NCBI GenBank assembly: GCA_054600435.1
Contig: BAAIJX010000104.1
Coordinates: 1-36,594, forward strand
DNA length: 36,594 nt
From: Neophaeotheca triangularis
Taxonomy: Eukaryota
Direction: 5' to 3'
Shown one piece after another: positions 6,066 to 29,799 of this stretch. The notes beneath the pieces were generated by a model. The model saw only the letters and a program-made list of their open reading frames with translations, ran no database searches and was not told the DNA's origin. Made by a program: the position numbers and the translations under genes. Each line of letters opens with the position of its first letter. Within the stretch, counting starts at the first letter, position 1.

Positions 6066-6443
6066 CCATCGTATCAATGCTTATTCCTGTCCAGCATTTG
6101 AAGCCGCCGTTGAGCATGGGGTTGGGTGCATTTGAAGCCTTCTTTTTTTTTTTTTTCCCTAGCTCTCCTCGTTTTGAATGCTCCTGCACGTAGTACTTAC
6201 TTGCCTTTCTCGCTTTTCACGTGTGACGGAATTGAAGACTTCTGGTTGCATTTACTGTTTGAGATGGAGCCCTACTGCACCCGCCTCGCTTTTTGCCCCC
6301 ATTCCTTTTTTGTTTCCTTCTTTTTTCTTTTTTTGTACACGGCAGATCTCGCAGACGAGAGGGGACAGTAGCGAGGCGGACAGGTTTTGAATTCTACCTG
6401 CGCAGGTTTATATAATGCAACTGTTGTTTCATTGGTGCCTTCA

Positions 6444-6444
<1 letters not shown>

Positions 6445-6474
<30 letters not shown>
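6445..6474. repeat. (CA)15 microsatellite
   Basis: Direct reading. Confidence 0.95.
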
Positions 6475-6477
<3 letters not shown>

Positions 6478-8391: not shown

Positions 8392-8729
8392 GGTGAGTAT
8401 ATCTCTCGTACCCGATCGAGGTAGAAGAAGAGAGAATGAGAAATCCAAGTGGTGTTCGGTGTCTATTCAAGGGTCGCGGCCGAGACGAGATGGGATGAAG
8501 TCGAGCTGGTGGCTGGGCTCACGGGTAGATCCGCTCTCCTCCGGCGCTAAAAGGCGGGAATACCCTACAGAAGGGTTGACGACGTCCGTGTGGGGGCGGG
8601 CAGCTGACGTGACACGCTGTTTCACATGATGGGAACTGTTACAGGCGCGTATCTACAACCCTGGAATTGTTACAACAACCTCAACTCTCCTTCCCCATTT
8701 CACCACCATTCCTCTCCTAACATGCCATC

Positions 8730-10773
8730 ATGAAGTGGGGCATTGGTCAGGGCAAAAGTCATGGCGAGCGCAAATACAACAGCGCCGACCCGGAAATGGC
8801 TTTAACTTATACTGTGGTCGGCCTGCTCTTTGGTGCCACTGTTGTTGCGAGCATTGTGCCATGGCTGCTTGCATTTGTGGGGAGACAAATGGGGAGTACG
8901 GTAACGAGTCGAACTCAGCAGCGCCGTGAGCTTCTCCTCGACCGGGCCACATCTGAGGAAAAAGATCAACCACCAAAGACGGAAATCGCCAGCAAGAAAC
9001 CCCCGTCCTCTACCTCTTTAGACTCGGAATGGGAAAAGGTTAGCCAAGCGTCGGCAACTCCTACTGCTAAATCCTTGTCCGAAGACGACAAAAGCTTCTC
9101 CGGAATCATAGGCTTCTTCCACCCCTTCTGTAACGCCGGTGGAGGCGGTGAACGTGTTCTCTTCGCCGCTATCCTCGCAACTCAACACCGCTATCCAAAC
9201 GCTCTTTGTGTGGTCTACACAGGCGACCATGAAGCCAACAAAGAAGAGATATTGACCAACGTGCGCAACCGCTTCAACATCCACCTCCACGCCCCTCGTG
9301 TCACCTTTCTCTACCTCAGCACGCGAGACTACGTCTTACCCAGCAAATGGCCGCACTTCACCCTGCTAGGACAGTCCCTCGGGAGTCTAGTGCTGGCCTG
9401 GGACGCCTTCAACCTCGTCGTGCCGGACATCTTCATCGATACCATGGGCTATGCCTTCACCCTCGCGGCATGCAAATGGCTCTTCCCCTCCATTCCCACC
9501 GGAGCCTACGTCCATTACCCCACAATCTCAACCGACATGCTCCGCTCTCTCCAAACAGATGTAAACTCGCACCAAGGTGGTGCCCACGCCGGTCTCGGAA
9601 GCGGCGTACGCGGTCGTCTAAAACAATTCTATTGGGAGCTCTTCGCCAAACTCTACAGCCGGGTAGGGGGCAACGTCGACATCGTCATGACCAATAGCAG
9701 CTGGACGCAAAACCACATGGCCTCCTTATGGGGCCCTTCTCGTACAGCCCAATGCAAGCCTCACGCCATTTCCGTTGTCTACCCGCCCTGCGCAGTATCC
9801 GAGCTCGCTGAGAAGATACCGGTGACGGCGGGAACCGAAGCTTCAAAACGCACAAAGGACATTCTCTACATAGCGCAATTCCGACCGGAGAAGAATCACT
9901 CCACCGTCATTGACGCTTTCCGATCCTACCTCTCCTCTCTACCAGAGTCAACACCCGTGTCCGAAAATCCAAAGTTGATACTCGTCGGCAGCGTTCGCGA
10001 TGACGCCGACGAAAAGCGTGTCTACAAGCTCCGACTCCAAGCACAAAGCATCAGGGACAGCGTGGAGTTCATCGTCAACGCCAAGTGGCCGAAGGTTTTG
10101 GACTTGCTGGCGACGTGTTCAGTAGGGGTGAATGGGATGTGGAACGAACATTTTGGGATTGGGGTTGTAGAATACCAGGCGGCCGGATTGGTGAGCGTAG
10201 TCAGTGATTCGGGAGGCCCTAAGAACGATATCGTCGTGCCGATTGATGGGAAAGAGACGGGTGAGTTCATTCCTTCCAGTCATGTTAATTTCACCTTCCC
10301 CCCCCCCCCCAACTCAAGTCTACTCTATCATCTTCCTGCCCTAGCACCTTACCGCTTCTCTTTCACTCTACACCGACGCCCCTGCGCTCTCTCTCGAGCC
10401 ATGGCCACAAGTCGCTCATCCCGAGCTTTCTTCCTCTACCACTTCTTCCGTCTCCGCTACACCAAGTAATCTACCCCTTACTCCGAGTCTCTGTCGAAGC
10501 TCAGCGCATGATCACTTCCTCCACTAACCTCAATCTACCTCCCCAGGCTACCACGCAACGACGCCTTCCGAATTTGCCGAGGGTTTCCGCAAAGCTCTCG
10601 CACTGCCCCAAGCCGAGATGCTCGCCCTTCGCCTCCGAGCGCGCGAGTCCGCTAAACGGTTCTCGGAAGACGTGTTTGACGAGGCGTGGAAGCGGCAGAT
10701 GGTTAGGTTGGTGGGCCTTGCTTCTGAGAAGTTGAAGAAAGAGGCAATGGAGGCGACCGGAGTTGGGCTTTAG
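8730..10773 (+). CDS. ALG11: GDP-Man:Man3GlcNAc2-PP-Dol alpha-1,2-mannosyltransferase (GT4)
   Basis: Motifs GFFHPFCNAGGGGERVL, HFTLLGQS, PDIFIDTMGYAF, YVHYPTISTDML, AQFRPEKNH, MWNEHFGIGVVEY and SGGPKNDIV. Exons 8730-10260 and 10547-10773 (intron GTGAGT...ACTAAC...CAG) restore TGYHATT...RFSEDVF. Alternative start at 8796. Confidence 0.95.
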
Positions 10774-11131
10774 AGAGGCTACTGGCTGTCAGTGGCGAGA
10801 CGCAACCGTCACTGCATAGGGAATGTTTCATGTGACTTTTCGGTGGGTAAGCACGCCAATGGGCACTCGCGACAGAGTCGACTCGGATCGACGTTTCTAG
10901 CGGATCAGAGAATATTCATGAACAGCATTGATTGAAGTTTCTTTTTCCCTCATAACGCACTAAACAGCTTGCTCAACAAGCAGTGCCCTAACACCCACCC
11001 CTATCGACGCGCACTCAGTAAACAGCCATGGCCTCTGGCAATCCCACAAACGCATCTCAGCCATAAGCAGTCAAGCAGCCTGTTTCTTTCTACGTGGACT
11101 CGCGTGTCACCTGCTTCACGTAACCATCCAC

Positions 11132-11782
11132 CTACTGCCGTATCGGCACCCCCTTCTCCTCGGCTTTCTTGACGTCTTCATCCACGCTCCGCGCCACCTC
11201 TTCAGGATCCTGCTCGTCGACACTCATGCCGCGGTGGAGAGTTGACTCCTTCACCGGGCTGCCTGCCTGACCCTGGCTGTTGCTGGGCTGCAGTTGGGGA
11301 GTGCCGGCCTGGCCGAGACTGCCACTGGGAGGGCCGGAAACAGAGCCGGAGTTCGAGTTTTGTTGGGACAGGTGAGGGATGGTGTCGGGGCTGTGGTGTA
11401 GAGGTGTCAGAGAGAAGAAGATGGGGATGCAAGCGTCAATGAAGAGGAGCTTACGAAGGGTGCTCACGACCCAGGCCGCCGACAAGACCGGCATCGGATT
11501 TGCCGGCCTTGCTCATGGCGTAATCGCCGCTGTCGAAATACTTGCGCTCCTGCGAGTCAAAGTCAGTGGGCTGCTGTAAGCGCCATAAGTAGTGAGTGGT
11601 TGTCTTACCTTCAGCTTGTTCTGGAGAAGGTCCTTCTTGTTCGGAAGCTTGCCATAGAGGCGGAATAGCTTCTGCTCTTCCTCCGTGAGGCTCTGTGGTG
11701 GTGGTAAGCATTCTGAGCGAGTGAGTCCACTTCCAGAGGCACTTACGCTAACATCGACCTTGTTCTGCTTGTGAGGGTTCAT
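11132..11782 (-). CDS. IGO1: Endosulfine / Igo1-type PP2A-B55 inhibitor
   Basis: Four exons (11782-11747, 11692-11609, 11549-11455, 11390-11132) with GTAAG donors and CAG acceptors. They join to MNPHKQNKVDVSSLTEEEQKLFRLYGKLP...ERKYFDSGDYA, carrying the Rim15/Greatwall FDSGDY motif. Confidence 0.93.
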
Positions 11783-13144
11783 ATTGACCGCTCTTTCGGA
11801 AGGTCCTGTGAGGGGAGGGTGCTACGGCGGAGGTGCCAGCCGGCCGCTGTGGGCGGCGAAGTTATTCTTTGTCCTAAGTTCCTCTTGGGAACCTTCTTGA
11901 ATTCCACAAAAGACTCGCGCTGCCACGAATGAGCTTCACCGTTCTTTCACCGTCTATATGCCGGCTAATCTTGTGCACCCGCTGCGTCGCTTTGTCGTAT
12001 CGCGCTCGCTCGTAAAGAAGTTCGCTTCTTGGCCGTTGTTCGGTAGGAAGCGCTGGATTACACTACGCTGTCTTTTGTGAGGATAGCGTACTCCAATGGC
12101 AGGACCGAAGGTGGACTTCCGGATGGTGGTGTTGTCGCGGCAGCTGGTTTCTGAGGGTGGGGCACGAGCGGGAGTGATCTTCTTGAAAGATACAGGCGTG
12201 CCGTGGGTGTTAGAAGCGCGAGGTGAAGCGAAGCAAGGCACACTTGGGTTATTGACTGAATCTGCAGAGCTCGTGACCAGAAGGGAAGCTGGAAGGGTAC
12301 GCAAGCTGTCTGCGATGAAGTTAATCAGCGCCAGGGAGCTTGGGCAGGTGTGGTGTAGTTAAAGTTATGGATCCTCCCGCTGCTAGCCGGTTCGAGATGC
12401 CCAATTCGACTGCAAAGGTCCTCTGCCAACATACGGATCGAGATAACACCTGCAAGATATCATAAGTAATTGACATCAGTTCGTCTGGTCGATGTCTTAT
12501 CGCTGAAGTAGAAGAAATCCATCCAATACCTAGATACCTACCGTCTTGGCGAACAATGCCCGTGGTCTGAAACTCGATACCTTATCAATACCTCCATTAC
12601 CCCGCACTAGGCTTCCCACTAGCAACATCAAGCATTGCGCAGGGTCCAAGACTCCAAAACTTGGATTTTTCTATTCGGCCAGATCAAGTATTAGTTGGCA
12701 TCAAAACTTCACTTGCAACCACAACGAACGCCTTTCTCACCATAGTGTTCTAATCTTTTGATTGGCGACGCAACCGCTGGTCAAACTAGAGCTCAATTTT
12801 GCGCACGGTAAGTCAGGACAAGAAACGCTATTTCGCTAGCACCTAATCTCTTCGGAAGCTCTTCATCCTTGATCTTGTTCTTTGTCTAATCATACCGATC
12901 CCGCGCCTAGCTCATCTTCATACGTACCAAGCAGCGTAGGTCTTGCCTTCTTGTCTTTTCGCAAGAGCTTTGCGGTATAGGGGGCTGCCCCAATGTCAAG
13001 AGAACCTTCCAGATAGATCTCTTTCACTTCTCCGTGAAGGCTTTGCCTCCGACCTCGTCGAGGCATCACGCCGAAGCCATATGTATCGCTCGAGCAACCA
13101 AGATGCTAACCAGATCCCCACCACATCCAGACAGCTCCCCCACA

Positions 13145-13965
13145 ATGTCGAAAAACTACGCCTACATCGTCGAGCATCTTGACCCTGAATTCGAAGCCTG
13201 GCAATCACTTGAATACAAAACAATTGCTCACGAATGCGCCACCAGCGGCATCGCGTCCTTCACGCTCTCCGGCTTGCAGCAAGAAGCCGTCGACAAAGCA
13301 CCAGCCTGGTGGAGGGAAACAATGCGCGAACACTGGACCAGCCGCAATGTCGAGGATCTCGTGACCGAGCGCTATGGCAGCTATGAGGAAGGCAAGAAGC
13401 GGGTCTGTCTTCTTGATCCCAAGGCGGAGAAGGATTTGGGTCCGGGTGACGGGGAGGACTTTGATGTTTTTGTTTTCGGCGGTATTTTGGGGGATGATCC
13501 GCCGAGGGGTGAGTTTCGGCTCGATTATCGACAGGCTTTTTGGGGGATATTAACGTGTGATTCTAGATCGTACTTCTGAGCTGAGGGCGAAGGGATTCGC
13601 GGGAAGAAGGTTGGGGGAGGAGCAGATGACCACGGATACGGCGGCGAGAGTTACGAGGATCGTTGTGCAGGACAAAGGTGGGTTGCCAGTTCCCTCCGTC
13701 TGGCTCAGGGAGCAGTTTTAACCAACTACAGTCGCCCTGAACGACATCAAGTACATCGACCGCCCCGACATCGAAGTCAACGCCAATGAGACGACATCGA
13801 TGCCCTTCAAGTACGTTGACAATGGCAAGGGTCAGCCTATCATGCCGGAGGTAAAGCTAGCAGTCTTCTGTCTCTCCAACGATCCTTGAAGCTCACAGAT
13901 ACTTCTAGGGAATGTTGGATTTACTGGCTTCGGACGCGGACAAGGGTATTCTGGATTTGCTTTGA
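13145..13965 (+). CDS. SFM1: SPOUT-family SAM-dependent methyltransferase Sfm1 (DUF431)
   Basis: Exons 13145-13508, 13567-13677, 13732-13850 and 13909-13965. Motifs YIVEHLDPE, VCLLDP, FGGILGDDPPRDRTSELR, RRLG..QMTTDTA, MPFKYV and PIMPEGML. Confidence 0.9.
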
Positions 13966-14283
13966 GCAGGGCTCCAACTCGACATCAACCGAATCCCGAT
14001 TTTTGCGATTACACCGGCTCTGAACGCTCATGTCATTCCCATCATGATATGCGCATCTTTCAGACGGGATATGTTCATGACCTCCCGATTCTTCGGCGCT
14101 CAAAAGCTTCTCACGAAGGAGTAAGACGGCTTTCGATCAACCTGTGCATACATTATTCCCACAGGCAGCCTTGAAGATTCCAGCATTTTTTCCGTAGTCT
14201 GCAAAATCTCTACAAATGATTCTGGTTACCGATCCCCAAGCGCTTTCTGCTAACATACGTAACACGATTTGTACCAATTATTC

Positions 14284-15840
14284 TCAAGCAGCCTTCCAAT
14301 CGTTACTCGTTTCCCAAGCATACGCAGCCTTGAAGATGCTGGCCTCATCCCAGTATTTACCGACGATCTGCAGACTTGCTGGAAGCTTTACGCTTAAGTC
14401 TCCCCTTGCTGGTACAAAGCCAATAGGCATAGCTAATGCCGGATGTCCGGTAATATTGAAAGGACAGGTGTTTTCGGTCTTACCACTCGAGCCAGCAACG
14501 AAATCCACCGGACTGGCGTCAGACGAGGGCAGAAGTTCTGCAGGTGATGCGGTCGTCGGCATTACGAGCAAGTCGCACTCTTTCAGTGCTGTGTCGTACG
14601 CATGCTTGAGCTTACGCCCTAGGTTGACAGATTTCGGGTAAGCGGTGGGAAAATTAGCCCAGGCGTATTCTCCGGAGACGAGGCCTTCTTTTGTCATGGC
14701 GCTCATCGTCTGCATTGATTCCGGACGCAGTAGACCTTTCTTCTCGTAAAGGTCCGTCAGCATCACTTGTCGTCTTCCAGTAGCCTGACCCTGCATCCCC
14801 ATGTGGTTGCCCATTTTCGAGACGACGCTATACAGCGGCCGCGAATGTTTGTGCATAGGGACGCTGACCTGGACAACCTCAGCGCCGAGCTTCTCAAACT
14901 CAGCGACGGCTTTGCGGAATATATCCTCAACCTCTCGACGCATTGAAGGTGACTCCAGACCCTCTTTCAGCACGCCAATCCTTAATCCCTTCACGCCCTG
15001 GCTCTTTGTCTCCAGAAGCATTTGTGGATAGTCGGGCACTTCTTCCGGCCAAGGGGCCCCAGCGATCTGTCTATCGTCCTCACCATCCACACCCGCCAGA
15101 GCTTGCAGAAGCATGGCACAATCCAACACCGTCTTCGTCATCGGCCCTACAGAATCCATACTAGCATCCAGACTCGCAATACCAGTATACGGCACCAGAC
15201 CAGTCGTAGCCTTGAACCCGTAAAGCCCACAAAGCGCCGCCGGAATCCGGATCGAACCGCCTTGATCGCAACCGATACCCAAATCTACTGCGCCGCTCGC
15301 CACCAGTGCCCCGGTCCCTGAACTGCTTCCACCGGCCGAATAGCCCCTGGCATAGGGATTGTGGACCGGCCCGGTAGCGGCTGTGGCACTGACGGCGCCG
15401 CGCGAGAGATTCTCGCAGACTGCTTTACCGGTGAGCACGCCGCCGGCTGCGAGAATGCGGGTCACGACTGTGGCGTCGGTTGTTGGCGTCCAGCCTGTGA
15501 AAGTGTCGGTGCCTAATAGGCATGGGACGGAGGCTACGGCGATGTTGTCTTTGAGGCATACGGTCCGTTTGGACAGGAGCGAGGAAGAAGGTTCTTTGTG
15601 CTCGCAGTGAAAACGGTAAGCCCAGGCGTTTTGAGAGTTCGCTGCTGCCGGCGGGAAGTGCACGTCTAGTCTAGGGGTGGAGGTGAAGTCGGGTAAGGGC
15701 TGGTAGTCTTCGCTTTCCATTACGGTTCTCAATGCCGCTTGGGTTTTCTCCATCAACGATGCATAGTCGGTGATCTGATCTTCTGGCAGCTGAAGGCCTA
15801 GTTTGTGGGCCGACTTGACGACGGCGTCCTTTGCAGACAT
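14284..15840 (-). CDS. Amidase-signature (AS) family amidase
   Basis: Intronless, 518 aa. Lys-cisSer-Ser triad motifs LKDNI, AGGSSSG and GCDQGGSIRIPAA; also NTCPFNITGHPALAMP. Confidence 0.92.
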   Translation of the reverse strand: MSAKDAVVKSAHKLGLQLPEDQITDYASLMEKTQAALRTVMESEDYQPLPDFTSTPRLDVHFPPAAANSQNAWAYRFHCEHKEPSSSLLSKRTVCLKDNIAVASVPCLLGTDTFTGWTPTTDATVVTRILAAGGVLTGKAVCENLSRGAVSATAATGPVHNPYARGYSAGGSSSGTGALVASGAVDLGIGCDQGGSIRIPAALCGLYGFKATTGLVPYTGIASLDASMDSVGPMTKTVLDCAMLLQALAGVDGEDDRQIAGAPWPEEVPDYPQMLLETKSQGVKGLRIGVLKEGLESPSMRREVEDIFRKAVAEFEKLGAEVVQVSVPMHKHSRPLYSVVSKMGNHMGMQGQATGRRQVMLTDLYEKKGLLRPESMQTMSAMTKEGLVSGEYAWANFPTAYPKSVNLGRKLKHAYDTALKECDLLVMPTTASPAELLPSSDASPVDFVAGSSGKTENTCPFNITGHPALAMPIGFVPARGDLSVKLPASLQIVGKYWDEASIFKAAYAWETSNDWKAA

Positions 15841-16059
15841 TACGTTTGCTTCGCAGAGTATCTAAGCCTGGTTGGAAAGGGGTATGAAGTGAACGATGTC
15901 CTTCCTAGTCGTTGTAAAGTAGCTCATGTCCGCGCTGCTCAAATCGATTTCGCTCAGGCACACAACTCCCACGGCAACACTTAGCCAATGCCGCATCCAC
16001 GAGTCGATGAGATTATGACCAAATCGCCAATGTGTCAAACAAACCCTCAATCGTCGAGG

Positions 16060-16270
16060 TTATCGTGACAAGATAACGAATGCATAACGCCAAGCTTTCG
16101 GCGGAGACGATGGTTTTGTCGGAGGGTCCGACGATAAACTCGCATTGCGGCAAATCCGACAAGATGGTCTATCCATCACAACCGCGTTATCGCTCGACGA
16201 ACTCTGACTGTAACGACCCCATCGCAGCATTTTGAAGATACGCAGCTCGAAGAACCATGTCGATAGATAA
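16060..16270. promoter_or_regulatory. Divergent amidase/NCS1 promoter with six HGATAR sites and two CGG-N5-CCG sites
   Basis: GATA sites at 16060(-), 16071, 16132, 16187(-), 16261 and 16265. GTCGGAGGGTCCGAC at 16118-16132 and CGGCAAATCCGAC at 16148-16160. Confidence 0.6.
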
Positions 16271-16362
16271 CGACTGCAGTGGCATTATGCGATTACAATA
16301 CATAGCGGTGTCTCCCTTCGAATTATTGAATCGTTCACATCAGCAAACGACAGGCCAAAATC

Positions 16363-18265
16363 ATGTATGCAGGCAGGCTGGCACTTCGCCACAAGATTGA
16401 CGACTTCAGCAATGGCGTTCGAACGGCTTTTTCGTCCAAGTCCAACTTCCACCGTGCCGTTCAAACCAAGGAAGCTCCGCCCGAAGGCACAGCTTACTAC
16501 AATGAAGACCTCTTACCTTCAACTCGCTGTAAGTCGGCTCTGTAGCGGAGATGGTACCAGGCAATAGCTAATTATCCCCCATTAAAGCCGCCAGGACCTG
16601 GAATGCCATGCACTTCTTCTCTTTCTACCTGACCGCTACCTTTTCGCCCAGCAGCTATAACCTGGGAGCCACGCTTATTACCATGGGTCTCCACTGGTGG
16701 CATTGCATTATAGCTGCCGTCATCGGGTCCGCAATCCTCACCGTCCTGGTCATCCTCAACTCCCGAGGCGCGACGCAATATCACATTGGGTTCCCGGTCT
16801 ACGTGCGCGCCTCATCTGGCATAGGCGGAGCCAAAGTCTTCATCATTGTGCGGGCGTCTGTGGCGACGATATATTTCGCAACGCAGACCTACTACGGAGG
16901 CATGCTGACGTCCGTCTGCCTACGCGCCATCTTCGGGGAGGCCTGGAACAGCGGCATCCCAAACATGCTACCGGACAGCGCGGGTATCACTAGCAAGAAC
17001 CTCTTGGCGTTCTTCATTTTCTGGATCCTCCAGTTTGGCGTCATGTTTGTGCATCCGATCGTTTTGCGGCACCTCTTCGTCGTCAAAGCTGTGTACACGA
17101 CGGTCGCCTTGTTGGCCGTGCTCGGCTGGGCGGTGCACATGAACGGTGGCTCGCTGGGAGACTTCTCGTTTGATATCCAAGTGCTATTGTCCGGCTCGGC
17201 ACTTGTCTGGCCCATGATCCAGGCTATCAACAGCGTCATGTCCGCGCTCTGTCCGATTCTGATCAACCAACCAGATGTGGCTCGATACGCCACCAGGCCT
17301 TCGCAAGCGACTTGGTCGCAAGGCACGGGCATCCTCATCAGCAAAGTGCTTGTCATGTTCATCAGTTGTGCTACAACTAGCGCCTGCACCGGCTTTCTCG
17401 GCGAGAGCTATTGGAACGTGTGGGATCTTTACGATGCCATCTTGACGCAGTATTGGAGTCCTGGGGCACGAGCAGGCATGTTTTTTGCTGGCTTGGTAAG
17501 TTGATTGACCCTGCACATGTATGATGTACTGCTAACCCCTCCATATAGGGCATGTTACTCGCAATCGTGGCGACGAACGCCGGCACAAACTCTTTACCGG
17601 TAGGCGCAGACATAAGTGGACTCGCTCCACGTTACATCAACATCGTGCGTGGCCAAATCCTATGTGCCACGCTCGCACCATTGCTTGTGCCATGGAAAAT
17701 CATCGCCTCGGCCCAGTCCTTCCTGACCTTCCTCGGTTCTTACACCGTTTTCCTGATGCCCATCTGTGGTATCATGGTGGTAGATTACTGGATTGTACGT
17801 CGGGGCAACTTCCACATTCCGTCGCTGTATACCAAAGCCCCCGGCTCGCCATACGCCTTCAAGGATGGATGGAACATTCGCGCAATGGTGGCTTGGGTTT
17901 GTGGTACCGCCTTTGTGGTGCACGGCGTAGCAGGCTCACTGAAGCCAGGAAGCGTCGGTACTGCTAGTGAGAACATGTACAAGCTTGGCTTTCTGCTCAG
18001 CTTCCTCATGGGCTCCGCGCTTTACTATATCTTTAGCCTGGTCTGGCCAATGCCAGTATATCCGGAGTGGGCAGAAGAAAAGTCGATGAGGTTTGAACAC
18101 ATGTCTGCGTCCGAGGGCTTCTTCCCCGGCGAGTCGGTAGACATGATTGCTGCTGATGTCCTCGGTGTGGAAACGTGTACGGCAAGTCTCCACGAGGACA
18201 AAGCCAGCAAGGACAAAAACGCCGCGAGGGAAAGATTGGCTGAGGAGCAGACCACCATGGTATAG
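16363..18265 (+). CDS. NCS1 nucleobase:cation symporter, Fur/Dal4 (uracil/allantoin) type
   Basis: Exons 16363-16528, 16588-17495 (AAG acceptor) and 17549-18265. Motifs NEDLLP..RTW, YHIGFPVYVRASSG, NQPDVARYA, WNVWDL, PRYINIVRG, PWKII..AQSFLTFLGSY..FLMPICGIMVVDYW and GWNIRA. Confidence 0.92.
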
Positions 18266-18352
18266 TTCTTGGGGAAATGGTCGAGGGACATACATAGACA
18301 AGAAATAGCTGTGACACGAAATGCGAGAATCGCATAGCTCACCGAAGCTATT

Positions 18353-20815
18353 CTACTGGGCCCAGTGTCTTCCGCCATTATCGAGTTGCTCGAAGTTAGG
18401 CATCCACACCGGCAGAGTAGAGTTTTGGTCCTGTTCGATCCATTGTGCCAATTCACCGACGATTCGCATGGCATCATCCTGACTGCCACCCCCTTCTGGT
18501 GGCCCATAAGCTGCGCCGTCGTCGAAGAAGACCTTCGACGGGGCGTTTGGCATATGTGAAACGTCCGAATTGTTGGGCAGCTGAGGGGCTGCTGCTGGGG
18601 GCCCGATGAAACTCTGCGTTCCCGATGTCGTTTCTGCTGGAAATCCATCGTTCCCATAGCCATGTCGAACGGCATTTTGGCGAGTAGTGCAAGGGTAATT
18701 GCTAGGTGAAACAATGTTTTGCACGCTAGGAGCGTTATCCCGATTTTGATTATTCTCGGTGGAAACATGGCTGTATAGCATGTTCGCACCTGCCGTTCGG
18801 GCAGCCTGTCTTGCGATGCTTTCATCACCGCTCCGTCGAGGGCCCTCGGTAATCCTATTCATGGCAGCACTGACGAGCAATTCAAAAGCGTCCCGATGCT
18901 TCTCTACCCAGGATGCTCGCTCAGACATCACGAAGAGCACAGAGGAGCATGCTCTTATGTCCTCTGCCAGTCTTGCGGACCATGTCTGCTGCGGATGTGA
19001 CCAAAGGCAATGAAGCATGGTAATACCGGCAACAAACACAGTCTGAACTGCGATGAAGCTGTGTCCATAGTTCGACTTTTGATGTAGTCGCTTGTGTGAC
19101 TGACAGATCTCGCCTGCGGAAAGCAAGCACCGTTGATAGTAGACATGGTCTGGTTGTAGAAGCGGCAGAAATGGCTCAATCAACAGCCGCACAGCGCGAT
19201 GGTAATGTAGGTTGAGGTAATCCAAATGACCCCCGGCAGCATTTTTGGAAGTTACAGCTTCTTTCCAGGCTTCCAACTTTCCATAAAGCGTTGGTAATTT
19301 GCGGAGGAGCGATGATCTAGGAACATCAAGCCTATACACAGAGTGACAGATCTGAGATTCTATGCGACGAAGGCGCACCAGGTCTACAGCTTGCGACGTA
19401 CGGGGAGACGATCCAGGATCGGCTCGTTCGAACGTAGCGACGGTTTCATTCGGGAGATCCACGTCAATCTGCCGGTCGGTGATACTGAAAGGTCTCCCGA
19501 GGGATATCGAGATGACTCGGTCTAGAGAATATACGCTCCAAAAGAGACGGCGGCGCAGCTGAGCGTCATGTTTAGAACATGTGCCCGAGGGTGGTTCTCG
19601 ATGCAAGTCAAGATCGATGCATGTCCGCATGGCCAAGCCTATCATGTACCACATCCCGTACGATGACGAAGAACGCAAGTGATAGAGCACTAGAAGTGTC
19701 ATCGCCTCGACGTTGTGGACACTCCTAGCTTCTCGCGCCGCCGAAACGTGCTGTAGTGCCGTCATGTAAAAGTTCTGTTCGAGACTCGCAGTCAGAGGCG
19801 GTAATACCCGAGACACGTTGCTTTTCCAAGGTAGAATTGTACATACCTCCGGACTGAACGCCGCAGCCTTTTGAGTCAATTGCAGAAGAGTAGACCCTAT
19901 TGCATACACCATACACAGCTTGAAGATTCCGAAACGCTCGTGTGCGGTTAAACGAGAGCTGTCAGATCCCAGAAGTCTACAGCGGTCTCCATGTAGCTTC
20001 CACAGAATCTCCTCGTCTAGGAAAGGATACCTCGTGTGCAGCATTGAGAGGTAGGAGGCGATCATACCATGGCTTTCAAAGTCGGTGGGCGTGGTTGTAT
20101 GGTGCTCTCGCAGCTCTTGTTGTGATATTGGGAGCCCATCCGAAGGTTGACGAGGTGTTACAAGTGATGCTGTCCTAGTCTGGTCTTCGAGAGCGTTCCC
20201 GGCTAGAGTTTTATTCCACACCGTGGCCTGCGCAATTTCGCTTAGGTTTGCTGCCAGAGACGTGCCTGTAGTGGTGGTTCCTGACGGAGCTGCAATGCCA
20301 TGATTTTGGAGTGCCGGCCTAGAGTCGACGGAAAAACGATGATTGCGGCAGATGCAACACGTATCGCCATGGGATTGCCTTTCCTCGCAACTCGTCTCGG
20401 CGGAGCGTTTCAAAGCTGCATTCTCGATCTCTAAGTGAGCGACTCGGTCTTCCAGGGTGCTGAGGTATCTTTGACACATATCAGCGAATGCACAGTGGGG
20501 GTGGATGCATGTATGTTTGTCCAGACGGACGGTCCTCTTACTCACTCCAACGGTATGCCCTCTTCTTCTCTCACGTTAGCGATGTCACATTGGAAGCCCG
20601 CCTTCTCGCAGTTGATGCAGTTCGGCCATTGCGCATCGCACTATATAAACCTGGAATGATCAGCGAGCGCAACATTGAATTATTGAAAGGTTCACCGAAG
20701 GGCATGGTGGACCGACACGTTTCTTCCTCGTCTTACATCGAGTACACGCCGTTCGTCCTCGCTTTTTCGGGTTGTCTTCGGCGTGGGCAGTCGTAGTCGT
20801 CGGTGGCGTTTCCAT
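18353..20815 (-). CDS. Zn(II)2Cys6 transcription factor with fungal middle-homology domain (Ppr1/UaY-like)
   Basis: Exons 20815-20717, 20640-20546, 20468-19847 and 19774-18353 rebuild RTACTRCKTRKKRCDAQWPNCINCEKAGFQC plus the coiled coil YLSTLEDRVAHLE. The middle domain has LAMRTCIDLDLHRE and RRRLFWSVYSLDRVISISLGRPF. Confidence 0.88.
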
Positions 20816-20983
20816 GATGAAGCAGCTTAAAGAGATTGGAAGACAACAATAACAACAACAACAACAACGACAGCACCCTTACATTGATTCGAGAATGTCA
20901 AGTTACCAAGCGCATATGGTCTTTCGAGGCAAACTTCACTTGACCGTGGCTACTACTTTGGAATCCCGTTCCCCTTCTGCCGT

Positions 20984-21091
20984 CTATCAAACCGGTCCGG
21001 GTGTCTGATAAGAGAGCCCAGTGTTGGTCACGGCTCAATATCTCACAAGATAAGCGTTGCATACTTCATATTATGTCAAGATATCTTATCT
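20984..21091. promoter_or_regulatory. GATA (AreA/NIT2-type) site cluster upstream of the Zn2Cys6 gene
   Basis: CTATCA at 20984, TGATAA at 21006, AGATAA at 21048 and TTATCT at 21086, all within ~110 bp. Confidence 0.55.
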
Positions 21092-21169
21092 CAACCACTC
21101 AGATCGATCCGTTGAGACAGTATGAGATGCATTTATTGCTTTCCCTTGGTATACACAAGCCATCCCATG

Positions 21170-22771
21170 CTAAACTCCAGCCTTTTCTGTCTTCGCGCCA
21201 GTCTCCCGTGCAGGCTCCTGTGGCACATCTGGCGCAACAGGCTCTTGCCTCTGCAGCCCAAAGTCTTTGATCAAGAAGCACCCGGCCAAACAGATACCCA
21301 TTAGCGGCACTTGCATAATGAAGACATTTCGACTGGCTGTTGCGTATGCATCCAGCACAATTTCCCTCTCCGGTCCATTCGCAATCGAGGACAGCGAGTA
21401 GGTATACTGCGACAAGTGCTTCAGCTCCTGGGGCAGAGCCGAACGGAGGCTGGCTTGCAACACGGCCGCCGAGACGGCCAGCCCACATGCTCCTCCACAG
21501 CATCTGAAGAAGTTTCTGTTCGACACAACTACGGCCCGTTGGGCTTTTGGTGAGTGAGCCTGAAGCGCCACCAGCGTTGGCTGAAAGATGTTGCCAACTC
21601 CGAGACCGACTATGGCCAGAATTACCGAGCACACGGCTGGATGCGTGGTTCGATCGAACAAGACGGTCAAACCGCAGCCCAAGGTCCAAGCCCCAAACCC
21701 CAGCCATAGCACCTCGATATATCGCCCTCGCCGTGATATGTACTGCCCCGACAGCACCGAAGACGTCGACTGGATCGCAAGCACTGGTATAGTGAGCGCT
21801 GCCGAGACGATGGGCGAGTATTGTCGAGCGTTCTGATAGTACAGAGGTAGATAGTAAAGGTAAGACTGATAGACCCAACCGAGTAGGAAGCTCTGTACCA
21901 AGAGCGTGCAGACCGCGCGGTTTGCAAACATCGAGAGTGGCATCATCGGTAGATCTGCGACTTTCCATTCAACCCCGACGTACAGCAACAACGCACAGGA
22001 GCCGATTGCCAACATGGCTATCACCATCGGACTAGCCCAAGGGAAATAAGCTCCCCCGCCGGATATCGGAATGAGGAGAAAAACGATCGCAACAGAAGAG
22101 GCGAGGACGCCCCAATGGTCGATTTTGCGTACGTTTTCCCAGAAGCCCGTTGTAGGCGGGCTTGAAGGGAGCATAAAGAAGGATATGACACCGCAAACGG
22201 TGACCAAAGGCGCCAAGAGCCAGAAGTGGCCTCGCCAGGTGGTACCCTGCACGAAGCCAGCCGCAACAAATGGGCCAACAATGTTACCGACACCAACACA
22301 GGCGCCGAGGATGCCCTGATACTTGCCTCGTTCCTGTAGCGAAACGACGTCTGACACAATGATCATGGTAAGGTTCGTGATGCCACCACCGGACAATCCA
22401 GCCACGGCTCGGAAAACGTAGAACATTGGAGCGTTTTGGGAAAGCCCGCAGAGTAGGTCTGCGACTGCGAGCATGCCGCATGCTGCCAGAAAAACCGGTT
22501 TGCGACCGAATATGTCGGAGAGTCGGCCGTAGAGGACGGAGAAGACTGTGTTGGCGATCAAGGAAGAGGTTCCGGCCCAGGAGATTGTTGCTTCCGCTGA
22601 TAGATCCGTTGCAATGGTTGGTAAGGCGACAGAGACGCCGTTCTGGTCTATAAAGCAAACGCAGAGGACGAGGGCAAGAGCCGAAAATAGTGACAAAAGT
22701 TGCGGCCTGGGGAGGAGGTTCTCTTGGTTGTGCAAGCTCTTCTCAGCTGCTGTCATTTCTTTGGCCGGCAT
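21170..22771 (-). CDS. MFS transporter, 14-TMS DHA2-like
   Basis: Intronless, 533 aa. Motifs FIDQNGVSVALPTIA, YGRLSDIFGRK (motif A), FRAVAGLSGGG, VSLQERGKYQG and YYLPLYYQ. Confidence 0.92.
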   Translation of the reverse strand: MPAKEMTAAEKSLHNQENLLPRPQLLSLFSALALVLCVCFIDQNGVSVALPTIATDLSAEATISWAGTSSLIANTVFSVLYGRLSDIFGRKPVFLAACGMLAVADLLCGLSQNAPMFYVFRAVAGLSGGGITNLTMIIVSDVVSLQERGKYQGILGACVGVGNIVGPFVAAGFVQGTTWRGHFWLLAPLVTVCGVISFFMLPSSPPTTGFWENVRKIDHWGVLASSVAIVFLLIPISGGGAYFPWASPMVIAMLAIGSCALLLYVGVEWKVADLPMMPLSMFANRAVCTLLVQSFLLGWVYQSYLYYLPLYYQNARQYSPIVSAALTIPVLAIQSTSSVLSGQYISRRGRYIEVLWLGFGAWTLGCGLTVLFDRTTHPAVCSVILAIVGLGVGNIFQPTLVALQAHSPKAQRAVVVSNRNFFRCCGGACGLAVSAAVLQASLRSALPQELKHLSQYTYSLSSIANGPEREIVLDAYATASRNVFIMQVPLMGICLAGCFLIKDFGLQRQEPVAPDVPQEPARETGAKTEKAGV

Positions 22772-22999
22772 TGCGACGAGTGATTGTTGGTATTAGGCCA
22801 AATAGCAGCTGAAGATGGTCAAGCCTTAAGGCGGGCGTATGTGAGAGTAATAAGAGTTCACATGTCGACTCTTCGCGATCGACTTGAATGCAGAAATCAC
22901 GTCCATTGACCCGGGGCAACTAACACACCCAGGTGGTGAAGTAGACGGGAGACTGTAAGTGGGTCAAGGGCGTGCGTGTCGCGGAAGTCGAGATGAGAT

Positions 23000-23166
23000 G
23001 TCGTTCTCGGGCTCATTGGGCCGAGAACGACTGTCGGAACTCCGCCCATCGGCTAAACCCGACATGCCTTCCGAAAGCGGACGCTCCGACAGCCTGTATC
23101 CAGATACCAGATAGCCGCCGGCGTAGTGTGGTGCAACCTATTATCACATTGGTCCTGACCTTATCA
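23000..23166. promoter_or_regulatory. Divergent MFS/PuuE-like promoter with several inverted CGG sites and GATA sites
   Basis: 11-bp inverted repeat at 23000-23031; GTCGGAACTCCG at 23033-23044; TCGG-N6-CCGA at 23049-23062; CGGACGCTCCGAC at 23078-23090. GATA sites at 23109, 23141(-) and 23161(-). Confidence 0.6.
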
Positions 23167-23364
23167 AGCCGCTCTACAATCAGCAGTCTTGAGCTCCACA
23201 TCCCACTTTGCGTGCGCTAGTCGACTGTGGTTGTAAGAGCATCATTCCCACTGTATACGGAAGATGTTATTTAGAGCTCTCGCAAGGTAGGAAAAGATGC
23301 GCCTTCGCTATCAAACCCGTTGTCATTTCTTCTCGTCCTCTCCGAGCACCTTGACCCGGCAAAA

Positions 23365-24497
23365 ATGGTGGTGATTGAAGAAAAATACCAAATCCCTCGA
23401 GACTTCGAAGGCAAGCCGCAGTCCTCCAATGGCGGACGACTTATTACCATCGACTGACCCAGTTTCACTTCTAGGGTTCGGTGAAGAAGGATTCGACCCG
23501 CAATGGCCCAATGGTGCGCGGATTGCCGTCTCCTTCATTCTCAACTACGAGGAAGGCGGTGAACGAAGTATCCTGGACGGCGATGCCCACAGCGAACCTT
23601 ACCTATGGGAGAAAGGCGCCTCAGGAGGCTACAAGGACGGCGCACGATATCTTAATGCCGAGCAAGACTTTGAATACGGCAGCCGCAGCGCTGCGTGGCG
23701 GTTCATTCGGCTATTCAAGGAGTTTGGGTGGAGATTTACGACGTACGCCGTGGCAGTGGCATTGAAGAAGAACCCCAATTTTGCCCAAGCTTTGGTTAGG
23801 GATGGGCATGAGATCGCGGCCCACGGTCTCCGGTGGTTGGATGTCTGGGAGTATGAGCTTGAGGAGGATAAAAAGTATATCAAGGACACTTTGACGATGC
23901 TTGAGCAAGTAACCGGTGTGATGCCAAAAGGAGCATACTTTGGCCGGGGTACACCGCAAACGCATGCTTTATTGCCCGAGTGCTGGCGAGAGATGGGATC
24001 GGAGCTTTCGTGGAGCTCGGAGTGCTACAACGACGATGTCCCGTATTGGCTGGACTTGCCCTGGGAGAAAAAGCTGCCTTTGGAGGATCGCAAAGGAATG
24101 CTGTTGATCCCTTACAACGTGAGTCCAGCGCCCATCTTTCTCATCGGTACCCAAATGCTCGTTTAGCGGAATGCTGATCTCAAAACCTTCACAGTACGAT
24201 TGCAACGACGGTAAATTCCACATGGCACCAGGCTTCGGCTCCTCGGTCGCTGAATCCTACACCAACTATCTCAAAAACACCTTCGACATGCTCTATCGAG
24301 AAGGTGGCAAGATGATGAACATACCTCTGCATACCCGCATCACAGGCAAACCTGGAAGGTGTGAGGCTTTGAGAAATTTCATGAAGTACATTTCCGAGAA
24401 GGAAGGAGTGTGGGTCTGCACGCGGCAAGACATTGCTGAGCATATGCGACACAAATTTCCGTACAAGCCAGAAGGTGGGTGGATGGAGGCTTCGTGA
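23365..24497 (+). CDS. PuuE-like metal-independent allantoinase / cyclic-amide hydrolase (polysaccharide deacetylase, CE4 fold)
   Basis: Exons 23365-23410 (GC donor), 23475-24118 and 24195-24497. Motifs PRDFEGFG..PQWPNGARIAVSFILNYEEGGE, FEYGSRSAAWR, HEIAAHGLRW, YNDDVPYW, IPYNYDCND, YLKNTFDMLYREG and PLHTRITGKPGR. Confidence 0.87.
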
Positions 24498-25391: not shown

Positions 25392-27290
25392 ATGTTCGGC
25401 GACTTCGCTGGGTTGGTCTCGCTAGCGAGCAGACTCTTCACTTTCGCTCTGCTCGCTGTATGTCTGCTTCTGCCATTATGGCGGTAGATTCTGGCTAATC
25501 TTGAAACCAGTGCATCGCTGCCATTATCCTCAAAGGCCTTTGGAACATCTCGCCTTTCAACCCTCTGTACAAGTATCCGGGCCCGTTACTGTGGCGCCTC
25601 TCTCGGCTACCAGCCTCCTACCACCACGCTACTGGAGATTTGTACATATGTATTTCTGCCATACATGAGAGATATGGTCCGACTGTGCGCGTCGCGCCGT
25701 AAGTTTTACCGAGTCGAAACGGGACCATTATGTTAAGTACTGACATGCCCGTTCGGCCTCTTCAGCGACGAGCTTTCCTTCACCGCACCAGAAGCATGGG
25801 CGCATATATACAATTCTCGCCCTCAACTGGAAAAATCAGCATACCACTTCCCCGGCGATGACCCTGATGGATTACCAGAGGGCATGGTCACGGCTCCTGA
25901 CGCCGAGCATATGCGTATCCGGCGCTTGGCCAGCCCGGCATTCCTCAACTCTGGAGTACTGGAGGTTGAGCCCATCTTGCAGCACTATTCAAACACACTG
26001 TGCTCGCAGCTAACTGCTGCCAGCGAAGAGGGGTCTCAGGACATGGTAGAATGGTCTCTCTGGACGCTCAATGATGTTATTGGTCATTTGGCCCTTGACC
26101 TACGCTTTGAATGTCTAGCGAAGCGGCGAATGCACCCGTGGCCCTCGTTTCTACTGGGAGCGCTGCGCCAGACAGCTGCGGTCAATCAATTTCGCCGATT
26201 CGGGTTTCCCCCAAGAATGCTGTATTCAGTAATGCCGCAGAGGATCCTTGACGCTAAGAGTGATTTTGTCAACTCAGCCAAGCTGGCGATTGATCAACGG
26301 TTGGAGCGGGAGAACTTGGGAAAGGGACAGAACGAGAAGAACCCCGACATCATGGGACTGATGCTGCGGGAGATGAAAGGCGGAGAGAGATTGAGCAGGC
26401 CTGATATCGCCTCCAACATGTCTCTGATTGTAGGTGCAGGGGCAGAGACGACGAGTATGTTATGATTTTGCCATTTTGGAAACGAAGCAACGACGTTGTG
26501 GCCAGACAATGGCTGTTTACTGGCCCCCTGATCACTATACATGTCGAGATCGATGGACGAGGAAGGCTGACACTCTCCTGATCTAGGCACCTGCATCAGC
26601 GCGACAATTTACCATCTCTGTAAAACGCCACGCGTGATGGAGAGGCTCAAAACTGAAATCCGCCGTTCTTTTGTCAAGAGCGAAGACATAACCGTTCGCG
26701 CAACCGCGGCGATGGCCTATCTCAAAGCCACCGTCGACGAATCGCTGCGCATCTTTCCCGTTGCGAGTTTCATCACACCGCGCAAGACACCTCCGGAAGG
26801 GCATGTGATCGATGGAGAGTTGGTGCCGGGTAACGTGAGTTGTACTCCCTGCTGCTCGCCTACGGCGCAAGACGAGGCCTCAGTCGGACTAGTGCTAAAC
26901 TGTCTCTTAGACCTATGTCTCCATGGGCCAGTGGCACATGGGTCGTTCCTCTGACTTTTTTGACTCGCCGGAGGACTTCAGACCGGAGCGATGGCTGGAT
27001 AAGGAAGGCCGCGAAGGTGTGCGGTCTGCCGCCGACGACATCCTTCGACCTTTCAGTCTGGGGCCCCGCAACTGCCTGGGGAAGCTGCTAGCATTGGCCG
27101 AGGCGCGACTCGTGATTGCAAAGCTTCTGTGGCACTTTGATATGCAACTCGACGGTCCGCATAACACATGGGTGGAGGATGCGAGGTTCTATGTGAGAAT
27201 GCCCTTCTTCAGTTGCTAATCCTGTGGACGAAATTGCTAACAGCATCCCCGGTGCAGATCCTGTGGCAGCTGCAACCTTTGAAAGTCTAA
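25392..27290 (+). CDS. Cytochrome P450, CYP65-like; C-terminus possibly truncated by a nonsense change
   Basis: Exons 25392-25457, 25511-25698, 25766-26454, 26587-26834, 26911-27192 and 27258-27290. N-terminal anchor, YPGP, YGPTVRVAPDELSF, I-helix AGAETTS, ESLR, FRPERW and heme motif FSLGPRNCLG. Confidence 0.88.
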
Positions 27291-27896
27291 CTGACACCGA
27301 TTCGGGGGCAGTAGCCACTTGAGGAAGATGCCCGGCGTAGTGTTGTCGATCGCGCAGCACCGAGGCGGCTGTTCACAACGCACATGACAAGATTGCTACG
27401 GTGGTGCCAACAGTGTTCAATACCACCGGGCGCCGAGCGCTAAGACAGAACGAGGTACTGATGTACATTTAAGTTTTGAGCCACTAGCTAAGACAACCAA
27501 ATCTTGCCGATCCCCCACACGTGCGTTACAGACTGCCGGTTTTTCCAATTAACTTCTTCACATTTTCCTCATTGGGAAAAGAAGCCGCCGCCATGTGACC
27601 GTGTGATGGAACACTTCGCATTCTTTGGACGTCCGGCACGCACCAAGCGCCTTGGGACGTCAGCTAACGGCTTGGTGGAATGCCACTCCGAGGTCTTGCC
27701 AGCACAACGGCTTTCTAGATTCCAACGGCGGGCTGACAGCAGCGAGACTGCGGGAAGGGAGGATAAGTTAATAAACAATCACATTTCCCTCGACATGTTG
27801 CGCCTTCGTCTCGCCCAACGAACAGCTCCTCGGGAGTTCGGTAGGACAGAACGACGGCATTTCCCTCGCTGACAATCGCCAACTACGCTCGTTAAG

Positions 27897-28653
27897 ATGT
27901 ACTCATCTCTCCTCTCGTTCCTCGCTCTCTTCCTCGCCATTACTACCGCTTCACCACTTCCGACTGAGCCCGAGCGTCGTCAAGCCATCACCTGCAGCAG
28001 AGGCGTTCATATCATTCACGCTCGCGGCTCGACCCAGACCTACGAAGCCTCATCTGTCAACCCCGTGGTCAACCGCATCCTCGCAGGCGTTCCTGGCTCA
28101 ACCGCGGAGCAGGTCCAATTCCCGGCGACAATCATCGCCGACGACTCTTTCTACTCGACGTCCGTCCGCGCGGGCATTGTTGACACGATCGATAAAATCG
28201 AACGCTACGTCGATGCTTGCGGCGACAGCTCCCGTATCGTCTTGCTCGGTTATAGTCAAGGCGGAAACGTCGTTACCAGTGCGCTCGCGGGTGGGCTGGT
28301 GAAGTGGCTTCCTTTGAATCCAAAGTACCGGGGAAATAGTACGTTGGGTGTAACGTTCCATGCACCGCGAAGACAGATTGCTGATATCGTGACCGCCAGT
28401 CCTTGCCGTGGCCTCCTTCGGCGACCCAACGCACACGAAGAAGAAAGACTACACGTTCGGCTCCGCTAGCGGGTCCGGCATTTTCAAGCGCGTGTGGCCG
28501 AGCACGACGCTGCTGAACACTTACAACGTGCGAAGCTACTGTTTAGCAACCGATTTCTTTTGCGACAATGGTTTCAGCTTGCAGGCGCACAGCGCTGAGA
28601 TGGCGACGTACGGGCCTGCCGCGGCGGACTGGATTATTGGGTTAGCTAGATAG
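27897..28653 (+). CDS. Secreted CE5 cutinase / acetylxylan esterase II-like hydrolase
   Basis: Signal peptide MYSSLLSFLALFLAITTASP. Motifs HIIHARGS, LLGYSQG (nucleophile), FGDP, CLATDFFC (Asp) and AHS (His). Intron 28339-28399. Confidence 0.9.
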
Positions 28654-28842: not shown

Positions 28843-28944
28843 GTCTCATCGTACCATTACAAGCAGCGAAGAAACTAACCCTCCTTTCGTCAACAAAGAC
28901 TACCAGCTACAGTTCTTGCCAATACAAAAGACTCACCTGCAAAA

Positions 28945-29799
28945 ATGGCGCCTCAAGTCTTCTTCATTACCGGCACCTCAACTGGTTTTGGTTATCATTA
29001 CGTCGAAAGGTGCCTCAAAGAAGGCGACAAGGTCGTCGCGACCGCTCGGAACTCTTCCAAGCTCGACTTCACAGACGCCAACAAAGACAACTTTCTAGCC
29101 CTCGACTGCGATGTCACGAAGCAAGACTCAATCACAGTCGCTTTCGACAAAGCTCTCGCCCAATTCGGCCGCATCGATGTCGTCGTCAACAACGCCGGCT
29201 ACGGTCTCTCGGGCGAGTTCGAGAGCTTGAGTGACGCTCAAATCCGTACACAGATGGAAGTCAACTTCTTCGGTCTGCTGAACGTCACCCGCAAAGCGCT
29301 CGAGACCATGCGCGAGAAGAACTCGCCGCCTGGCGGCCGCATCCAGCAAATCACGTCTATCGGCGGCCAGCGCGGCGTGCCCACGTTTTCCGTCTACTGC
29401 GCCAGCAAGTGGGCGGTTGAAGGCTTCACCGAAGCGGTCGCTCAGGAGCTCAAACCGGAGTGGAACATTCAGCTCACGTGCATCGAGCCTGGCGGCTTTA
29501 GGACCGACTGGGCTGGCCGCTCAATGGATTTCGGCGAGGAGAAGAACCCCGCTTACGACCACATCGATGCGAAGAAGCAGATGGGTGAAAGGAATGGAAC
29601 GCAGGCGGGCGATCCGAAGAAGGGCGCGGATGCGATGTGGCAGGTAGCGAAGATGCAGGACCCGCCTTTGAGGCTGGTCATTGGGAGTGATGCTTACAAG
29701 GGCATAATGGATAAGATCAAGAAGTATGGGGAGCTGTACCCGAAGTACGAGAAGTTGGCGAACAGCTGTGACGTGGATGGGTACCAGCGTCCTCAGTAG
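28945..29799 (+). CDS. Classical short-chain dehydrogenase/reductase
   Basis: Motifs TGTSTGFG, NNAG, catalytic Ser and YCASK, IEPGGFRT and GDPKK. Confidence 0.93.
   Translation: MAPQVFFITGTSTGFGYHYVERCLKEGDKVVATARNSSKLDFTDANKDNFLALDCDVTKQDSITVAFDKALAQFGRIDVVVNNAGYGLSGEFESLSDAQIRTQMEVNFFGLLNVTRKALETMREKNSPPGGRIQQITSIGGQRGVPTFSVYCASKWAVEGFTEAVAQELKPEWNIQLTCIEPGGFRTDWAGRSMDFGEEKNPAYDHIDAKKQMGERNGTQAGDPKKGADAMWQVAKMQDPPLRLVIGSDAYKGIMDKIKKYGELYPKYEKLANSCDVDGYQRPQ

Follow-up and report, generated by a model that had tools for sequence, protein, structure and literature searches.

The window analysed here is the whole 36,594-bp contig BAAIJX010000104.1 of Neophaeotheca triangularis (assembly GCA_054600435.1). 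It contains, between positions 14284 and 24497, five intact genes that encode an amidase-signature (AS) amidase, an NCS1 permease of probable Fur type, a Zn2Cys6 transcription factor, an MFS transporter and a hydrolase related to the bacterial allantoinase PuuE (Table 1). The genes are packed into 10.2 kb, with gaps of 522, 87, 354 and 593 bases between successive members, and form two divergent pairs, amidase/NCS1 and MFS/PuuE-like, around the Zn2Cys6 gene. Both the five families and this arrangement had been proposed in a first-pass annotation made from the sequence alone, and they are borne out by domain matches and spliced gene models; the spliced PuuE-like protein is the same as the public model P0001. 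The data presented below suggest that the locus is probably one copy of a nitrogen-catabolic cluster that filamentous ascomycetes have conserved as a self-contained unit, devoted to the import, ring opening and deamidation of a cyclic imide or ureide.

Table 1. Features of the cluster and of its right flank in the N. triangularis window (aa, amino acids; E, E-value).
Feature	Position	Strand	Structure and remarks
AS amidase gene	14284-15840	-	single exon, 518 aa; PF01425, E 8e-80
Divergent promoter, amidase/NCS1	15841-16362		CGGNNNNTCCGAC sites and HGATAR sites
CGGNNNNTCCGAC, amidase/NCS1 promoter	16118-16132		palindromic
CGGNNNNTCCGAC, amidase/NCS1 promoter	16148-16160		
NCS1 permease gene, probable Fur type	16363-18265	+	exons 16363-16528, 16588-17495, 17549-18265; PF02133
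Zn2Cys6 factor gene	18353-20815	-	exons 20815-20717, 20640-20546, 20468-18353; 769 aa; PF04082, E 7e-28
Region upstream of Zn2Cys6 gene	20816-21169		HGATAR sites
MFS gene, probable DHA2/TRI12 type	21170-22771	-	single open reading frame, 533 aa; PF07690, E 2e-48, and PF06609
Divergent promoter, MFS/PuuE-like	22772-23364		inverted repeat, CGGNNNNTCCGAC, CGG sites, HGATAR sites
CGGNNNNTCCGAC, MFS/PuuE-like promoter	23078-23090		
PuuE-like hydrolase gene, CE4/NodB fold	23365-24497	+	exons 23365-23410, 23475-24118, 24195-24497; 330 aa; PF01522
P450 gene, right flank	25737-27000		at least 2 exons
Cutinase gene, right flank	27873-28466		
Short-chain dehydrogenase gene, right flank	28879-29796		

The hydrolase belongs to the CE4/NodB-type fold. 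In phmmer searches its large exon (residues 11-209) matched the PuuE structures 3cl6 (E = 1e-45) and 1z7a (E = 5.5e-48), and a sequence search of the PDB at E ≤0.01 returned only these two entries together with 3s6o and 3rxz; the HpPgdA structure was not among them. Matches in the protein atlas were solely to NodB-like and PuuE clusters, and identity to characterised PuuE is ∼45% over ∼300 residues. An HxnM-type identity, that is, a CE4 enzyme resembling HpPgdA, was considered and rejected, as HpPgdA was not retrieved at this threshold and the protein groups with PuuE. The motifs NYEEGGE and HG.RW, which mark the replacement of the CE4 metal ligands in PuuE, align with their PuuE counterparts and vary little or not at all among 16 fungal members of the family. 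Passages in PMC8092297 and PMC10269774, where such fungal proteins are noted in passing as PuuE-like and then set aside, also back the replacement of the metal ligands. Intron 1 of the hydrolase gene (23411-23474) has a GC-AG border instead of GT-AG, which is demanded by the P0001 model and by the conserved N-terminus of the 16 relatives.

Although family and fold are those of PuuE, the fungal proteins are set apart from the bacterial enzyme. Against the PuuE equivalog model TIGR03212 the window protein scores 297 bits, below the cut-off of 424.6, and relatives from Aspergillus nidulans, yeast and clade 2 (defined below) score 257-313 bits, compared with 540 for PuuE of Pseudomonas fluorescens. 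A tree of 89 rows, built with a quick method, SH-aLRT support and a midpoint root, separates 33 bacterial PuuE rows (support 98) from 56 fungal rows (support 98). The fungal group comprises clade 1, with 39 rows (support 99) including the window protein, and clade 2, with 16 rows (support 98); the nearest bacterial sequences to the window hydrolase are all at or below 44% identity. Of 137 columns that are each at least 90% invariant among 105 bacterial PuuE sequences, clade 1 keeps 93 (44 are changed) and clade 2 keeps 104. The changes in clade 1 convert GWYTGR to GAYFGR, PYTLD to PYNYDC, DMRF to DGKF and SIGLHC..GRP.R to NIPLHS..GKPGR, and the long loop that follows the first helix has become a conserved YLWEKG.SGG; PMC3084791 situates this loop near the PuuE active site. 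Domains of urate, allantoin or ureidoglycolate genes were found neither in the window nor in five long related loci. These comparisons place the hydrolase in a fungal family that is sister to bacterial PuuE, outside the equivalog, and we read it as a ring-amide hydrolase of the PuuE family whose specificity has been altered. The initial label of ‘PuuE-type hydrolase' is correct for family and fold, although the protein falls outside PuuE proper, and the phylogeny against bacterial homologues that had been advised places the fungal proteins in a group of their own, sister to bacterial PuuE.

The amidase translation contains the LKDN, GGSSSG and GGSIR motifs, which carry the Lys, cis-Ser and Ser of the amidase signature, placing the protein in the AS family. 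Among solved structures it is nearest to the Rhodococcus amidase 3a1k (E = 3.9e-91), and among NCBIfam families to PRK07235 (477.8 bits, below the cut-off of 545), whereas models of allophanate hydrolase and AtzE give 134-146 bits against cut-offs of 425-511. While the AS assignment stands, the ureide-cleaving members to which attention had been drawn are not its closest kin; these are general monoamide amidases (PRK07235, 3a1k). This profile tips the balance slightly towards a terminal carboxamide, for example a half-amide formed from a cyclic imide, and away from a ureido group, as the probable target. Orthologues with 59-73% identity occur in many Pezizomycotina. In a tree of 46 amidases three separate lineages pair with the hydrolase: lineage A contains the window amidase and the neighbour of the hydrolase in Sporothrix thermara, lineage B is the partner in metagenome clade-1 loci (43-54% identity to the window amidase), and the very distant lineage C is the partner of the clade-2 hydrolase. 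Such repeated pairing of the hydrolase with different amidases speaks for a joint requirement for the two activities.

With regard to transport, both large exons of the NCS1 gene match PF02133 and TIGR00800; the protein scores 52-78 bits against allantoin-permease equivalogs, whose cut-offs lie at 620-800, and a sequence search with the exon matched no solved structure. Orthologues in named fungi are 67-81% identical, frequently lie on the same contig as the amidase or PuuE-like gene, and include neighbours of AN3354-type genes (AN3354 is the PuuE-like gene of A. nidulans). The MFS protein has TIGR00711 (DHA2/EmrB) as its best NCBIfam match, at 154.6 bits against a cut-off of 230.2, and scores 46 bits against TRI12 (cut-off 23.2). 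The regulator displays both features of its family, the fungal-specific middle domain PF04082 and a six-cysteine cluster, C-X2-C-X6-C-X6-C-X2-C-X6-C, at residues 24-51, the latter visible only once the first intron is spliced out.

Conservation of the linkage was explored in metagenome contigs, which were scanned with the alignment of the 16 fungal hydrolase relatives; the 80 loci returned (numbered with the prefix L) were queried with the window proteins. A clade-1 hydrolase with 59-69% identity is present in 26 loci, an additional locus, L033, joins the clade on a long branch, and in the hydrolase tree most of these loci fall with Dothideomycetes. Nineteen clade-1 contigs extend 1 kb or more upstream of the hydrolase gene, and 16 of them show a divergent amidase that starts 490-880 bases from the hydrolase start. 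The 26 loci also contain NCS1 (11 loci, 55-71% identity), MFS (6 loci, 50-62%) and the Zn2Cys6 factor (4 loci, L007, L012, L013 and L078; 35-41%), counts to be read in the light of the many contigs that are too short to show further cluster members; all five families occur together in L012 and L078. Independent support comes from nine named genomes, in which members of the cluster are only 1-4 locus tags apart: Sporothrix thermara (007081/007082), Sporothrix bragantina (000772/770), Talaromyces amestolkiae (BHQ10_006625/27), Talaromyces atroroseus (UA08_03183/81), Apiospora phragmitis (PG994_003860/57), Aspergillus nanangensis (FE257_002548/51), Penicillium psychrofluorescens (LOCUS6126/29), Paraphaeosphaeria minitans (PMIN02_011065/61) and A. 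nidulans, where the PuuE-like gene AN3354 lies near the NCS1 gene AN3352. The latter, tabulated as an NCS1 transporter in PMC5371717, may belong to the orthogroup of the window permease. The tagged members lie on contigs of equal length in the first eight of these species, and in around 12 further species cluster members likewise lie on equally long contigs. Linkage is kept across classes of Pezizomycotina, whereas unlinked orthologues would have spoken against a cluster, and the association of the five families is more than chance. In the public model of A. nidulans AN3354.2 (P0071) the NYEEGGER...YLWEKG stretch is replaced by unrelated residues, which suggests a mispredicted intron or a damaged gene.

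The same five families recur around the second hydrolase paralogue. Clade-2 hydrolases, with 41-49% identity to the window protein, are found in 19 other fungal loci, and the clusters around them comprise L021-L028, L031, L034-L036, L038, L040, L041 and L044. A DHA2-type MFS distinct to this group lies nearby in 11 of the 19, a Zn2Cys6 factor likewise in 11 and NCS1 in five, while nine contain an AS amidase too divergent to be detected with the window amidase as query. An Old Yellow Enzyme gene lies at the edge of three of these loci (L024, L026 and L028, two of them near-identical) and a P450 gene is present in L022; the former hints, speculatively, at an unsaturated ring as the substrate of the clade-2 cluster. 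In bacteria the association with an amidase was not seen: a query of 80 PuuE loci revealed no full-length amidase neighbour, the single match being a 48-residue fragment in L083. One bacterial metagenome contig, L050 (positions 800-14900), contains a PuuE just over the equivalog cut-off (442 bits) flanked by a divergent PRK07235 amidase and an amidase of the PRK07488 type, together with a caprolactamase/hydantoinase-like subunit, a polyamine-type ABC importer and a HisD-like dehydrogenase, a setting unlike a classical purine operon. Its tree neighbours L048 and L100 also have non-purine contexts, without an amidase.

The two divergent promoters had been described as sharing motifs. For exact words the resemblance is within chance, as no common word of 10 bases or more exists and the single common 9-mer is expected; however, the CGG-N4-TCCGAC element CGGNNNNTCCGAC is confined to these two promoters, where all four of its occurrences in the 36.6-kb window, at three sites, are located (0.23 expected). 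In an independent check a relaxed form of the element was present in 3 of 16 orthologous cluster promoters (shuffle mean 0.28, with 3 of 1000 shuffles reaching three) and has two matches in the remaining 169 kb of the orthologous loci. A different spacing, CGG-N11-CCG, occurs in 9 of 19 related promoters where 2.6 are expected, mostly as TCGG-N11-CCGA some 200-340 bases upstream of the hydrolase gene. The MFS/PuuE-like promoter additionally contains an inverted repeat of the CGG-N10-CCG type, with two perfectly matching 11-base arms around a 10-base spacer (23000-23010/23021-23031), followed by CGG-N4-6-CCG sites at 23035 and 23050. CGG palindromes are the targets of Zn2Cys6 proteins, and HGATAR is the site recognized by the nitrogen GATA factor. 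The six HGATAR sites in the amidase/NCS1 promoter (532 bases) make it the densest 550-base stretch in the first 32 kb; there are four in the MFS/PuuE-like promoter, the window average being 2.06 per kb, and four in the 353 bases upstream of the regulator gene (shuffle mean 1.3).

The flanking genes are unrelated to the cluster. To its left are the housekeeping genes MYG1, ICE2, ALG11 and an SFM1-like methyltransferase gene, and to its right are the P450, cutinase and short-chain dehydrogenase genes listed in Table 1. Seven flanking genes (including P450, cutinase, the dehydrogenase, SFM1-like and ALG11, with MYG1 and ICE2 left out of the query) and three unassigned open reading frames were searched against the 80 metagenome loci at E 1e-6 without a match, indicating that the unit consists of the five genes originally proposed. 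Window open reading frames of at least 110 amino acids contained neither a Dal1-type allantoinase domain nor an allantoicase domain, in agreement with the first-pass annotation. P450 genes lie beside the cluster in L078 and L022 but are unrelated to that of the window. The contig end (32500-36594) is AT-rich, with a GC content of 31% compared with 54% elsewhere, a TpA/ApT index of 1.87 and a (CpA+TpG)/(ApC+GpT) index of 0.19, values as expected of repeat-induced point mutation; a 205-residue open reading frame in this region (33161-33775) has no Pfam match.

From the chemistry of these families we infer in which order the reactions run, what the MFS protein does, how the cluster is regulated and to which class the substrate belongs. 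The NCS1 symporter would import a small heterocycle containing a -CO-NH-CO- unit, a cyclic imide or ureide resembling hydantoin, allantoin or succinimide, and the metal-independent hydrolase, predicted to be cytosolic, would cut one amide bond of the ring. The amidase would then hydrolyse the exposed terminal carboxamide or ureido group, liberating ammonia, while the MFS transporter, probably of DHA2 type, may remove or relocate the acid product or a toxic intermediate. The Zn2Cys6 protein is likely to turn on both divergent promoters through CGG-type palindromes, and the GATA sites would place the cluster under general nitrogen control. The logic of uptake, ring opening and deamidation, already present in the initial proposal, gains support from the head-to-head arrangement of hydrolase and amidase genes in related loci, the three amidase lineages and the paralogous cluster. 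Literature searches on AN3354, the neighbouring AN genes, fungal PuuE and cyclic-imide or hydantoin clusters found no account of this cluster, in line with the earlier remark that the five-gene combination was not recognised as a characterised fungal pathway.

Several observations weigh against this interpretation. The divergent amidase is missing from three of the 19 informative clade-1 contigs, L002, L010 and L033 (L002 has a weaker amidase-like match in the other orientation), and the contigs are not all independent, since hydrolases are identical or near-identical within the sets L016/L018, L012/L013, L011/L078/L019 and L045/L046. In most related loci the amidase is the 43-54% identical paralogue and not an orthologue of the window protein. 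Gene order also differs: the window pairs amidase with NCS1 and MFS with hydrolase, whereas the usual pair is amidase and hydrolase. The CGG-N4-TCCGAC motif was derived post hoc from the very promoters in which it is enriched, and neither CGG-N11-CCG nor TCGG-N11-CCGA, as seen in related promoters, occurs in those of the window cluster. Finally, the intact NYEEGGE and HG.RW motifs would be compatible with allantoinase activity.

This last point leads to an alternative in which the cluster is an allantoin route, with the NCS1 protein importing allantoin, the PuuE-like protein acting as a true, metal-independent allantoinase and the amidase deamidating allantoate or a later ureide in place of allantoicase or allantoate amidohydrolase. 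We consider such a route unlikely. The conserved signature motifs and the ∼45% identity to characterised PuuE are compatible with it, the NCS1 orthologues carry the name ‘allantoin permease' in public records on grounds of similarity, and passages of PMC8092297 and PMC10269774 suggest in passing that fungal PuuE-like proteins might be allantoinases. These considerations are opposed by the score of 297 bits where the equivalog cut-off is 424.6 and P. fluorescens PuuE reaches 540, by the change of 44 of the 137 PuuE-invariant columns and the rebuilding of a loop near the active site, by the lack of any other purine-catabolic gene in the window or related loci, and by an amidase closest to monoamide rather than ureide amidases. 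Furthermore, alX mutants of A. nidulans, which are devoid of the Dal1-type allantoinase, are reported in classical genetics to be unable to use allantoin even though this species carries AN3354. On balance, the substrate is somewhat more likely to be a compound other than allantoin.

Two further explanations were entertained. The genes could form a detoxification or resistance cluster directed against a toxic cyclic imide or a nucleobase-like antimetabolite, in which the MFS protein is the main actor, the two hydrolases inactivate the compound and the gain of nitrogen is incidental. A transporter of the DHA2/TRI12 drug-efflux type is indeed kept in both paralogous clusters, and PMC9304392 describes intermediates of the nicotinate pathway upstream of its imidase and amidase as toxic. 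A dedicated importer that is 67-81% identical among orthologues, however, makes little sense for a toxin, and the density of GATA sites fits nitrogen-catabolic control, leaving this explanation improbable. The least credible proposal, to which we attach almost no weight, is that the PuuE-like gene encodes a chitin deacetylase whose neighbours are there by chance. It derives from database names such as ‘chitin deacetylase 1', which reflect name transfer only, and was rejected because the first and third CE4 metal-ligand positions are replaced, as in PuuE, the N-terminus is without signal-peptide-like features, and the linkage is kept over many genomes and in the paralogous cluster.

The two hydrolase clades can be viewed, tentatively and with a little less than even confidence, as parts of an ancient duplicated five-gene cassette by which filamentous ascomycetes salvage nitrogen from heterocycles, and in which the PuuE fold was retuned from allantoin to one or more unrecognised natural cyclic imides or ureides. 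Hydantoins and rings of the succinimide or maleimide type are candidates for such a cassette, and the clade-2 Old Yellow Enzyme would fit an unsaturated imide. Were this true, the cassette would represent a new eukaryotic catabolic pathway and would provide the first physiological substrate for a Fur-type permease orthogroup for which no assigned function was found. The paired clusters also constitute a clean system in which to study whole-cassette duplication and change of specificity. Many records wrongly name members of the fungal family ‘chitin deacetylase 1', and cell-wall studies have left these proteins aside; the conserved cluster gives them a testable metabolic role, and points to a nitrogen source that is probably usable by many moulds, black yeasts and plant pathogens. 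In addition, the enzymes could serve as metal-free biocatalysts of the hydantoinase or imidase type.

The proposed pathway has counterparts in several established systems. The yeast DAL cluster is likewise a fungal nitrogen-catabolic unit with a Fur-type NCS1 permease and control by GATA factors, but it uses the metallo-allantoinase Dal1 and allantoicase, the domains of which were not found in the window. Bacterial hydantoin-utilisation (hyu) operons, in which Mhp1 is the NCS1 permease, and the bacterial route for cyclic imides, with its imidase and half-amidase, follow the same three-step logic; their enzymes come from other families, namely a hydantoinase that depends on metal and a carbamoylase of the nitrilase or M20 type, and they also differ in regulation and kingdom. 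Bacterial PuuE (3cl6, TIGR03212) has its fold and metal-free signature in common with the window protein. It sits, however, in purine-catabolic operons, with a full-length amidase neighbour in none of 80 loci (the L050 contig alone pairs PuuE with a PRK07235 amidase), while the window protein is from a separate fungal clade below the equivalog cut-off.

The closest parallel is within the fungi. HxnM and HxnN of the A. nidulans nicotinate pathway are, according to PMC8478523 and PMC9304392, a characterised fungal cyclic imidase and AS amidase, a precedent for the two-enzyme step that the first-pass annotation had proposed without mentioning it. As described there, a ring-amide hydrolase of CE4 fold acts before an AS amidase, by which the ring nitrogen is set free. 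In some fungi, Lipomyces for example, the two genes lie next to each other in divergent orientation, and the hxn cluster also includes transporters and a pathway-specific factor. The two systems are nevertheless distinct. HxnM is described there as a metal-binding, HpPgdA-like protein with more than 60% identity to the Pseudomonas putida imidase, whereas the window hydrolase sits with PuuE; the hxn regulator, transporters and oxidoreductases are absent from the window, and the importer is NCS1 and not MFS. The cluster would add to the nicotinate pathway a second fungal case in which a CE4-type ring hydrolase is coupled to an AS amidase.

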